Of a stretch of DNA of 64,000 bases, positions 32,275-39,830 are shown piece by piece. This stretch comes from Octopus vulgaris. Its lineage: Eukaryota. The notes under the pieces are model-generated. The model searched no databases, had not been told where the DNA came from, and saw only the letters and a program-made list of their open reading frames with translations. Made by a program: the position numbers and the translations under genes. Location: contig OX597817.1 in NCBI GenBank assembly GCA_951406725.2, positions 54,560,001 to 54,624,000 on the forward strand. Direction: 5' to 3'. Each line of letters starts with the position of its first letter. Position 1 is the first letter of the stretch.

Positions 32275-32564
32275 TCTTGACTCTCAACACACGAACTCAT
32301 ATAAAGAGTCTTGCAAACCAAATCCCCAAACGATATATATATATATATAGCAATAATAATTCTCTAAAAGAGATATAGACAGTAACTGCTCGATAACATA
32401 AGGGACTAAAGCCATCTGAATATGGCTAGGGACAGGGTAGGGTGGTGGGGGTGTTACTGTTGCATTTAGCCCCTGGCGAACATCGACGTCACCAGAAAGG
32501 CCCGACACCGTCACGGTGTCCTTAACCTGCAAAGGGAGGTAATTCCCCGATGAAGCGGAAACCA

Positions 32565-32610
32565 CACACGGACCATGGTTTCAAGGTGTATTGCCTATCG
32601 TCGGCGTGTG
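32565..32610 (-). ncRNA. Type I hammerhead ribozyme, U4C core
   Basis: Reverse complement of 33035-33080. Confidence 0.75.
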
Positions 32611-33034
32611 GTAGGCTTCCGCTTCCTCGACGAATTCTCACTCTGCAGGATATTCATATATAGATTTTCAAGCAAAATACATTTGCTGATTTCGAAAATC
32701 TGTTCGAAAGCAATAATAATTCTCTAAAAGAGATATAGACAGTAACTGCTCGATAACATAAGGGACTAAAGCCACCTGAATATGGCTAGGGACAGGGCAG
32801 GGTGGTGGGGGTGTTACTGTTGCATTTAGCCCCAGGCGAACATCGACGTCACCAGAAAGGCCCATTCAGATGGCTTTAGTCCCTTATGTTATCGAGCAGT
32901 TACTGTCTATATGTCTTTTAGAGAATTATTATTGCTTTCGAACAGATTTTCGAAATCAGCAAATGTATTTTGCTTGAAAATCTATATATGAATATCCTGC
33001 AGAGTGAGAATTCGTCGAGGAAGCGGAAGCCTAC

Positions 33035-33080
33035 CACACGCCGACGATAGGCAATACACCTTGAAACCATGGTCCGTGTG
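33035..33080 (+). ncRNA. Type I hammerhead ribozyme, U4C core
   Basis: CACACG-CCGACGA-T-AGG-caataca-CCT-T-GAAA-CCATGG-TC-CGTGTG; palindromic stem III ACCATGGT; GUC site at 33074; stem I extends via GAAGCGGAA/TTCCGCTTC. Confidence 0.8.
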
Positions 33081-33389
33081 TGGTTTCCGCTTCATCGGGG
33101 AATTACCTCCCTTTGCAGGTTAAGGACACCGTGACGGTGTCGGGCCTTTCTGGTGACGTCGATGTTCGCCTGGGGCTAAATGCAACAGTAACACCCCCAC
33201 CACCCTGCCCTGTCCCTAGCCATATTCAGATGGCTTTAGTCCCTTATGTTATATATATATATATATATACAGGTATTTGGAACAATTTTGGGGGGTATTA
33301 TATGATAATATTATTTTATTCTCAGTCAGAAGAATTCAGAATAGGAAATTTCTTACACGTTTCTCCTTCATCATATACAAATTTTTTTA

Positions 33390-33776
33390 TTTGTTTCACT
33401 CAAATGACGGGAGCCGTGCTGGAGTACCGCCTTTAGTCGAGACAGTCGACCCCGGGACTTATTCTTTTTAAGCCTAGTACTTATATTATCGGTTTCTTTT
33501 GCCGAACTGCTAAGTTACGGGGACATAAACACACCAGCATCGGTTGTCAAGCAATGCTGGGGGGACGAACACAGACACACAAACATACACACACATATTT
33601 ATACATATATAAGACGGGCTTCTTTAAGTTTCCGTCTACCAAATCCACTCCTAAGATTTTGGTTGGCCCGAGGCTATAGTAGAAGACACTTGCCCAAGAT
33701 GCCACACAGTGGGACTGAACCCGCAACCATGTAGCTGGTAAGCAAGCTACTTACCCCACAGCCACTCCTGCGTCTA
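33390..33776 (-). mobile_element. SINE family A
   Basis: Homology to other copies. Confidence 0.9.
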
Positions 33777-34166: not shown

Positions 34167-34757
34167 ATATATAATATATATATACTCTTACTCTTTACAT
34201 GCTTCAATCACTTGACTGTGGCCATACTGGAGCACCGCCTTTAGTCGAGCAAATCGACTCCAGGACTTATTATTTGTAAGCCTAGCACTTATTCTATCGG
34301 TCTCGCAGCACCTCCTCCACCGCCACATTCACCACCATCACCACCATCACTAGCAGCAGCAGCACCAACACCACGAAAATCACCAGAACCACCACCACCA
34401 AAAACAAAAACAACAACAACAACATGACTACCACTACAAGCACCGCGACAACCACCACCACCACCACCAAGTCCATCAGAGAAATGTCGATGTGGAAGTC
34501 ATCTGAGGATTACGGATGAGAAGCAGTAAAAATAGTAACTTACGAAGTGTCAGTTTCGAAATAAGAATATCCAATCTGTTTCTTGTATTAAGAACTGTCT
34601 CAGACTTCATTTACTTACAAAGAATTAGTTATTACCATATCTTCTCTCCTTCGTTCCCTCCACACACACATATGCATACATATATCTATACACACACACG
34701 TACACACATATATATTGATATATGTAAGTATATACATATATAAGCACATACATAAGC

Positions 34758-36082: not shown

Positions 36083-36643
36083 TATTTATTTCTTTATTGC
36101 CCACCGAGGAGACAAACAAGGACAGACAAAGAGATGAATTCGATTACATCGACCCCAGTGCGAAACTGGTACTTCTTTAATCGACACCGAAAGGATTAAA
36201 GGCGAAGTCGACCTCGTCGGAATTTGAACTCAGAACGTAACAGCAGACGAAATACCTATTTCTTTACTACCCACAAGGGGCTAAACCCAGAGAGAAGAAA
36301 CCAGGACAGACAAACGGATTAAGTCGATTACATCGACTCCAGTGCGTAACTGGTACTTAATTTATCGACCCCATGAAAGGCAAAATCGACCTCGGCGGAA
36401 TTTGAGCGTTAGACAAATTACCTATTTCTTTACTACCGACAAGTGGCTAAACACAGAGAGGACAAACAAGGACAGACAAACGGATTAAGTCGATTATATC
36501 AACCCCAGTGCGTAACTGGTACCTATTTAATCGACCCCGAAAGGATGAAAGACAAAGTCGACCTCGGCGGAATCTGAACTCAGAACGTAAGGGCAGACGA
36601 AATACTGCTAAGCATTTCACCCGGCTTGCTAACGATTCTGCCA
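36083..36643 (-). mobile_element. Tandem trimer of SINE family B units
   Basis: Three consecutive units starting TATTTCTTTA at about 36086, 36258 and 36423. Confidence 0.85.
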
Positions 36644-38777: not shown

Positions 38778-39111
38778 TATGTTTAAGGTCTATGGACACA
38801 CACACACAGTGAAACTGACATTCACGTACATATGTTGTTACACGCATGCAATCACACATCCATATTTTTCTATATGAATAATATTTTCGTCTTATGACTA
38901 ATTCGTCTTTTGTGCTGGGCACCTGGTAGTAAATAATATTACTACCCTTCTTGTTTATATTCGCATACTACATGATGAATTTATTCGTAAAATTCTTCCC
39001 GGCATGCCCGTGTAAATTTTGCGTCTGCGCAGAGATTTGAAAAGTTAAGATCTGCTAGTAGTCGGGTTTAACATATAGCCCCACATCGCTGAAGACCTCG
39101 ATTAAATTCAG

Positions 39112-39191
39112 GCGACTCGCTGATGAAGCCAGCCTTAGCAAACATATTCTGTGTTTTGCTAGAAAGAAGCAGAAACCGCGGTACGAGTTGT
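39112..39191 (+). ncRNA. Type I hammerhead ribozyme (canonical core)
   Basis: GCGACTCG-CTGATGA-...TAGCAAACATA ttc TGTGTTTTGCTA...-GAAA-CCGCGG-TA-CGAGTTGT; 8-bp stem I (2 G-U pairs), palindromic stem III ACCGCGGT, GUA site at 39183; base of stem II is weak. Confidence 0.8.
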
Positions 39192-39556
39192 TAAAATTAT
39201 CGGTAAACGTTTTTGATTTTCACTCTCGATAAATTCATCCCCTTTTTGTGTTCCCAGCACTCGGCATCTTTATTTAGGAGCCCTTAATTGTATAACCACA
39301 TGAATAATATTTTTCTATATGAATAATATTTTCGTCTTATGACTAATTCGTCTTTTGTGCTGGGCACCTGGTAGTAAATAATATTACTACCCTTCTTGTT
39401 TATATTCGCATACTACATGATGAATTTATTCGTAAAATTCTTCCCGGCATGCCCGTGTAAATTTTGCGTCTGCGCAGAGATTTGAAAAGTTAAGATCTGC
39501 TAGTAGTCGGGTTTAACATATAGCCCCACATCGCTGAAGACCTCGATTAAATTCAG

Positions 39557-39636
39557 GCGACTCGCTGATGAAGCCAGCCTTAGCAAACATATTCTGTGTT
39601 TTGCTAGAAAGAAGCAGAAACCGCGGTACGAGTTGT
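39557..39636 (+). ncRNA. Type I hammerhead ribozyme (second tandem copy)
   Basis: Same sequence as 39112-39191, offset by 445 bp. Confidence 0.8.
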
Positions 39637-39830
39637 TAAAATTATCGGTAAACGTTTTTGATTTTCACTCTCGATAAATTCATCCCCTTTTTGTGTTCCC
39701 AGCACTCGGCATCTTTATTTAGGAGCCCTTAATTGTATAACCACATGAATAATATTTTTCTATATATATATATATTTATCTGTTGGTAACAATCCAGCGT
39801 GGAGACGCGCACCAACGTCAGTTGTGGCAC

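Follow-up and report, generated by a model that had tools for sequence, protein, structure and literature searches.

The locus described here lies in a window of 64,000 nucleotides from Octopus vulgaris (contig OX597817.1, positions 54,560,001 to 54,624,000). It raises the question of which enzyme, working on which RNA template, could leave two oppositely oriented and circularly permuted copies of one small ribozyme-bearing unit in a single target site. Two life-cycle steps that bear on this question are called open in the literature, namely which enzyme moves animal retrozymes and how the one-tailed inverted repeats of Penelope-like elements (PLEs) originate. The locus is one among hundreds of young copies of a small non-coding mobile family, and a family that is young, high in copy number and very uniform offers countable footprints for both steps.

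Architecture of the locus

Two head-to-head arms of a 360-nt hammerhead-bearing unit lie within a (TA)n tract at positions 32333-33269 of the window (Table 1). Phase 1 of the unit was set to window position 33075, the base right after the GUC of the hammerhead. Phase mapping confirmed the arm boundaries, the numbers of turns, the opposite orientations and the differing phases that had been proposed in a sequence-only reading of the window, and both sense 3' ends point outward into (AT)n, as that reading had stated. The left arm begins with its 5' end at phase 68 and terminates at the long start site (phase 221/222), and the right arm terminates at the short one (phase 176-178). Positions 33251-33252 probably belong to the target rather than to the right arm, and the 45-nt tail would sit between two reverse-transcription start sites. 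At this locus the right arm is nested within the left arm. The arms mismatch at four of 389 shared positions; three of these differences (32438, 32474 and 32775) had been noticed from the sequence, and a fourth, at phase 199, with G in the right arm and C in both left-arm turns, had been missed. Besides the insert at 32349-33252, no further copy of the unit was found in the window.

The unit is non-coding and has no LTR. None of the three short frames tested has a Pfam match, and a coding role for an 89-codon frame at phases 351-258 was rejected, as it has no Pfam match and is broken by one-base indels elsewhere. Folded as a circle, the unit reaches -119.9 kcal/mol (z = -5.9 relative to 100 shuffled sequences; z = -3.9 for the antisense strand), and the three hairpins that had been pointed out before are present. 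The long stem that prolongs helix I of the hammerhead would, according to the predicted fold, keep both cut ends together. The fold of a hairpin in the tail is unsupported (z = 0.26). Other repeats in the window are two 79%-alike copies of an interspersed repeat, presumably SINE-like (33386-33496 and 34194-34304), which is also present at other loci of the analysis, a 445-bp tandem duplication (38862-39777, 99% identical) and a 166-bp tandem duplication (36245-36577, 86% identical).

Table 1. Features of the insert and its target, in window positions; phases refer to the 360-nt unit.
Feature	Position	Strand	Description
Left (AT)n target tract	32333..32349		sequence
Left copy of target duplication, putative	last 11 nt of 32333..32349		flank pure TA, hence uninformative
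Left arm	32349/32350-32863	minus	515 nt, phases 68 -> 222, 1.43 turns
One-sided tail	32350..32394	minus	45 nt, phases 177-221, left outer end only
Left-arm type I hammerhead, predicted	32565..32610	minus	predicted cut 32571/32570
Head-to-head junction of both truncated 5' ends	32863..32864		no microhomology
Right arm	32864-33252	plus	389 nt, phases 150 -> 178, 1.08 turns
Complete non-coding 360-nt unit	32864..33223	plus	46.7% GC, strongly self-paired as a circle
Long stem prolonging hammerhead helix I	33009..33104	plus	fold of 33005-33105, z = -5.78
Right-arm type I hammerhead, predicted	33035..33080	plus	predicted cut after C33074
Right (AT)n target tract	33251..33269		sequence

Predicted hammerhead ribozyme

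One type I hammerhead fold per unit is predicted from motif, pairing and covariation, and both hammerheads of the insert are present as claimed from the sequence. In the right-arm hammerhead, helix I comprises 6 bp, helix II has a U.U at its base and helix III is palindromic (ACCAUGGU); the core reads CCGACGA (U4C) instead of the canonical CUGAnGA. An Rfam search of the window returned no hammerhead, either at the gathering score or with the E limit relaxed to 5, where two chance microRNA matches were the only results; the ribozyme call therefore rests on motif, pairing and covariation. Across 17 variants from the unit's family and a sister family, helices I-III are paired in 97.7% of cells, compared to 15-49% in slid controls. 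Both-sided changes occur in four pairs, namely CG to UA in helix I, AU to GC in helix II, CG to UA in helix III, and C3-G8 to UA. As these variants are related to each other and were collected by a pattern that favors pairing, pairing and covariation are support rather than proof. The helix covariation across subfamilies suggests selection on cleavage.

Within the family the core reads CCGAYGA in young copies and UUGAYRA in older copies, which carry U3.G8, and is canonical in none. U4C is described as a natural variant with lowered activity in vitro that is tolerated by a viroid in vivo (PMC3088659), and a short palindromic helix III is reported as typical of animal hammerheads that act as dimers (PMC4209133). 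Another repeat, at loci L165 and L211, contains a compact type I hammerhead with a helix I of 8-10 bp and the core CCGACGA; U4C cores seem to be frequent in this genome.

A young family with two fixed 3' ends

Genome-wide searches with exact patterns, whose counts are lower bounds, gave at least 1310 hammerheads, at least 750 junctions of phase 222 and at least 527 of phase 178 with (AT)n, and at least 995 internal read-throughs of phase 222. The 2.8-Gb genome thus contains at least 750 insertion ends of the family. Arms were mapped in 124 loci, 64 of which were found via internal sequence and 60 mostly from junction lists. Segments shorter than 60 nt or below 84% identity were dropped from the analyses of core variants, haplotypes, arm reach and array mosaics, and ends outside both end classes were dropped, together with the scrambled locus L160, from the counts of end classes, cut-site ends and stop coupling. 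At L160 (G000:C1:132674000-132679000) fragments of the unit are scrambled and split by TA runs and other short sequence, which sets this locus apart from the rest. On contig C1 the arms show a median identity of 96.8% to the window unit.

The 5' ends of the arms are scattered over all phases. The sequence-only reading had expected such scatter of end phases in general, but the outer 3' ends lie at two fixed internal sites separated by about 45 nt. By hand count, 92 of the 111 segments in the 64 loci retrieved via internal sequence terminate precisely at phase 178 or 222, and 109 terminate within phases 160-182 or 212-226. Head-to-head pairs with 5'-truncated arms occur at 61 of 80 C1 loci. A short end is combined with a long one in 88 of the 91 inverted pairs (p = 1e-22 if the choice were 50:50), and one of the three exceptions (L159, also dropped from the stop-coupling analysis) is cut by the edge of the extracted stretch. 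No tail-to-tail pair was present among the 91. (AT)3 adjoins 205 of 214 ends, about half of the loci having been picked by such ends. With the ends placed at phases 176 and 221, the target duplication measures 11, 11, 11, 11 and 12 nt at the five informative loci among 69 pairs. Phases 177-178 are probably target-derived and the tail is about 45 nt long, because a haplotype with G at phase 177 shows A only in the terminal unit of the short end.

Copies longer than one unit had been predicted, and the longest arms indeed reach 14.7 turns of near-identical units. In single insertions both arms can be long (2933 + 2948 nt; 5304 + 3025 nt). Six of ten loci longer than 2 kb contain 0-2 internal substitutions, five of them arrays of 2.5-8.3 kb and one an array of 2.2 kb with two; the other four loci contain 8-27.

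A sister retrozyme family (L202:6780-7018 and L206-L215) is about 60% identical to the unit round its whole length. It has a canonical CUGAUGA core, the same 3' terminus running into (AT)n, and permuted as well as head-to-head copies; a first look gave 2621 candidates, and its copies are about 90% alike. The tail (phases 177-221) is the best-conserved stretch between the two families.

Penelope-like integration footprint and search for a helper

The integration footprint of the family is a PLE signature. PLEs are described as leaving an inverted 5'-truncated copy and a tail of 30-40 bp on one end, with target duplications of 8-10 bp, a preference for microsatellites and a hammerhead in the terminal repeat (PMC3846280; PMC8557442 / 10.1101/2021.04.23.441226). 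In the octopus family the tail is likewise present on one end only, though at 44-45 nt slightly longer than reported, and the targets are AT-rich microsatellites with a duplication of 11-12 nt. This duplication and the outward sense 3' ends support the earlier proposal of priming from both sides of a cut in the TA tract. In vitro, the Poseidon PLE protein of the green anole cuts and extends both strands of AT-rich DNA (Frangieh 2024, PMC11167929). Downstream of the hammerhead cut, two neighboring sites within the RNA, between which the tail lies, are reported to serve as starts of reverse transcription; insertion needs no hammerhead cleavage, uncut RNA being the main template, and a PLE dimer is predicted (PMC11167929).

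Two young PLE families were encountered in the genome. The first (L191-L200, e.g. G000:C16:20833500-20842000) is autonomous, with (AT)n targets and a 40-nt tail. Its two long frames encode 479 aa without a known domain, followed by a 781-aa protein with RT and GIY-YIG. Copies of the latter frame are near-identical; the family's own two ends lie 40 nt apart and run into (AT)n, and one of each end is present in both of the two inverted copies that have both ends in view. The second family (L202:3024-6178 and L045:3600-5001) is head-to-head with a tail on one end; its protein is 99% identical between copies and 46% identical to the 781-aa family. Its terminal-repeat hammerhead shares with the unit a U4C core (here CCGAAGA), a U.U at helix II and a palindromic helix III. 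Both PLE families carry the CxxxxCxxC motif that was described for Neptune/Nematis PLEs.

A GIY-YIG search, in which 150 of 6136 candidates were scored, yielded 45 loci without similarity to the unit. Among the PLE loci of this search there was no autonomous PLE with the unit's tail, nor any pLTR homology of the unit. The sole similarity to the unit came from a neighboring copy of the sister retrozyme. The window contains no match to a PLE protein; such matches occur at 6 of 134 family loci, all outside the arms, so the insertions are not themselves autonomous PLEs.

One template or two

Haplotypes were compared between the arms of each pair. All copies of a locus agree at 123 variant sites, and at no site is a variant fixed in just one of the arms. 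Nine of 63 pairs are discordant, at one site each, compared to 46.9 expected by permutation, and in the youngest clade 4 of 30 pairs are discordant, compared to 15.1 expected. This shows that the two arms are on the same haplotype. The stops of the arms are also correlated (rho 0.54, 86 pairs). In 16 of 20 short pairs on contig C1 the arms stop at most 25 nt apart, and in a set of 22 short pairs 17 stop within 21 nt, compared to 8.0 expected. In 20 near-symmetric pairs the arm from the short site is ahead in 12, behind in 3 and level in 5 (p = 0.035), as expected if the enzyme at the long site queues behind on one RNA. Passage beyond the hammerhead cut site is shared by both arms of a C1 pair with an odds ratio of 21, and similar values were obtained at other thresholds. 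Two template classes split exactly at the hammerhead cut were therefore rejected as the source of the coupling, which holds at all five thresholds tried. Taken together, shared haplotype and coupled stops suggest that a single RNA served both ends of the cut as template. That both arms came from one and the same molecule is what we infer rather than observe, because haplotypes could likewise match if a single source locus were active in each cell.

Three other explanations bear on these pairs. Copying of two separate RNAs of the same haplotype, one per DNA end, by an asymmetric PLE dimer is improbable. It would suit the predicted dimer (PMC11167929) and a single active source locus per cell, and in long pairs the two lengths correlate only weakly (rho 0.35, p = 0.06). 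However, short pairs stop almost together with a one-sided lead, a given point tends to be crossed by both arms or by neither, and the offset of +44 that equal running times predict was found in only 4 of 86 pairs. Self-primed fold-back, by which the first arm would be copied into the second, has been proposed for PLE palindromes with an antisense template (PMC3846280) and would account for the nesting at the window locus and for the perfect palindromes in 5 of 86 pairs. This origin is very unlikely and already largely refuted, because 14 of 21 short C1 pairs are non-nested, the tail-less arm reaching further 5' while the other has the tail; in addition, 25 of 91 central junctions have no overlap to prime from, and arm lengths differ by up to 2.2 kb in either direction. 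Just as hard to credit is that a one-unit insert grew after insertion by unequal crossing-over or slippage, or that the inverted repeat is an assembly artefact. Unequal crossover of satellites is discussed for vertebrate retrozymes (10.64898/2026.07.22.740005), and the inverted repeat is known here from assembled sequence. Against this stand hundreds of dispersed young insertions with exact common ends and target duplications, single insertions whose two arms are both long and nearly free of mutations, and the four differences between the window arms.

Circle or linear multimer

Of 136 C1 arms, 79 extend across the hammerhead cut site, with two crossings in 28 and three in 14. No indel was found at 289 cut-site junctions matched by pattern, although indels inside the motif could escape the pattern. 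As arms cross the cut site up to three times and more, a cut linear monomer was not the sole template. An uncut linear multimer would give the same DNA, so the multi-turn arms alone fit either a multimer or the circle that the sequence-only reading had proposed. Since linear multimers would become shorter with each generation through truncation alone, growth is most simply explained by a circle. Two alleles, each private to its locus, occur in all copies there. On our analysis the case for a circular template is a little better than even. Retrozyme circles were demonstrated in coral, mussel and axolotl, and their copying by reverse transcription was proposed (PMC7229834).

The main alternative to a circle is PLE double priming on a linear multimeric transcript of a tandem array that is left uncut or partly cut by a weak hammerhead, which we consider rather unlikely. 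The U4C core and the weak helix III speak for it, as does the use of uncut RNA as the main PLE template in vitro (PMC11167929). At the second crossing, six 5' ends lie at most 4 nt from the cut site compared to 1.3 expected (L003, L031, L086, L088, L137 and L155), as a linear template would give. At the first crossing there are two such ends compared to 3.8 expected, one of them not a true end, and at the third none in 26. Stopping at whole turns, a possible sign of a circle, is not enriched among the 5' ends of long arms (13 of 61, p = 0.32; first against second pass, p = 0.04-0.06) and was not counted as evidence. In the arrays of L046, L156, L044 and L089 the units alternate between family haplotypes in non-mirrored turns; these mosaics could be template switches, multimer templates or polishing errors, and homogeneous parents would also yield homogeneous daughters of a multimer. 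However, 5' truncation bars the daughters of linear multimers from outgrowing their parents, yet arms reach 14.7 turns. Minority alleles recur at the same turn of the partner arm in only 4 of 56 cases, although most of these alleles are probably later mutations, long pairs lack a common stop (2 of 30 stop within 25 nt), and the hammerhead covariation suggests that cleavage is under selection.

The unit was present in 20 of 24 sequencing runs, none of the 20 being listed as RNA and 14 being RNA by guess. Three presumed-RNA runs each contain the whole unit in one contig of 390-391 nt, two of them with an end-to-start joint (back 360), and the same joint occurs in a large run of unspecified kind, probably DNA. 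As the joint is seen in assembled contigs, including probable DNA, a circle and tandem DNA look alike in these data. In run X17, over window 33145-33252, the summed contig depth is far higher at phases 70-178 than in the hammerhead half; this skew may reflect many short truncated arms or related families and is not a copy number.

Proposed mechanism

The reading that we somewhat favor is that of a non-autonomous 360-nt non-LTR retrozyme moved by the RT/GIY-YIG protein of a PLE through double priming on one circular RNA. As in known retrozymes, hammerhead cleavage of transcripts from tandem copies would release a 360-nt unit that is closed into a circle. The PLE protein would make a staggered double cut in (TA)n, leaving 3' overhangs of about 11 nt as suggested by the target duplication, and each DNA 3' end would prime reverse transcription, presumably by the PLE enzyme, at one fixed RNA site, at about phase 176 or 221. 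Two enzymes would then run on the same RNA in the same direction, the one from 221 behind the one from 176, and displacement of the cDNA may allow up to about 15 turns. The truncated products would finally be joined, probably by end joining, which leaves the arms head-to-head and the tail at a single side of the insert. More tentatively, and with a chance that we put a little short of even, two PLE reverse transcriptases, one per end of the same staggered cut, may chase each other round a single circular ribozyme RNA. If this is true, the head-to-head repeats and the one-sided tail of PLEs are explained without self-priming, and the family gives direct footprint evidence that PLE enzymes roll animal retrozyme circles. 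If the circle holds, this would be a natural target-primed rolling-circle reverse transcription that writes multi-kilobase arrays into the genome.

Comparison with known systems

The element fits the non-LTR retrozymes, a known class; the sequence-only reading had recognized neither this nor the large family and its known type of PLE integration signature. Animal non-LTR retrozymes are described as tandem units of 150-450 bp with a GC content below 50% and one type I hammerhead each, self-paired as circles, without LTR and with target duplications of more than 4 bp (PMC7229834). Cervera and de la Pena (2020) propose that a circle is reverse transcribed into tandem cDNA, with PLEs as candidate helpers (PMC7229834). 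The octopus family, with dispersed tandem units of 360 nt and 46.7% GC, is alike in all of these traits, the U4C core being a feature of the octopus unit. The passages of that study compared here contain no mention of (TA)n targeting, of arms set head-to-head or of a pair of fixed internal 3' ends. Circles and cleavage were demonstrated there and are predicted for the octopus family.

For vertebrate retrozymes, Li (2026) proposes an origin as non-autonomous PLE derivatives that are mobilized in trans, based on homology to pLTRs and on co-occurrence, and calls the mechanism open (10.64898/2026.07.22.740005). As in vertebrates, retrozyme and PLE co-occur in the octopus and have the hammerhead type in common. 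Unlike the vertebrate retrozymes, the octopus unit yielded no pLTR homology among the PLE loci compared, yet its integration footprint is PLE-type. As retrozymes, their link to PLEs and the end structure of PLEs are all in print, this is a known kind of element. In the open literature, no published retrozyme with a PLE footprint and no rule of different start sites on one haplotype was found; nor was an account of a footprint of one RNA with two primers. Subscription papers, Repbase/Dfam entries or the supplement of PMC7229834 may hold this family.

A related arrangement arises by twin priming of LINE-1, in which two target ends prime on one RNA and yield an inverted insert with the 5' ends joined. 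Its segments are adjacent, non-overlapping parts of the RNA, one of which starts at the poly(A), whereas the octopus arms duplicate one and the same stretch, starting from two fixed internal sites. With PLEs the family shares the head-to-head truncated copy, the one-ended tail, the duplication, the microsatellite target and the hammerhead (PMC3846280, PMC8557442). It differs from them in lacking an ORF, the whole element being a 360-nt repeat with up to 15 turns per arm, in its tail of about 45 nt and duplication of 11 nt, and in the inversion at 61 of the 80 C1 loci. A biochemical parallel is Poseidon, with the same cutting and extension of two strands at AT-rich DNA and two adjacent internal starts (PMC11167929). 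The in vitro reaction on a linear template showed no link between strand and start site, whereas the octopus arms use different sites in 88 of the 91 pairs. The rule that emerges, with both start sites used in every insertion, a different one at either DNA end, and a single haplotype throughout, is testable by the existing in vitro PLE assay.
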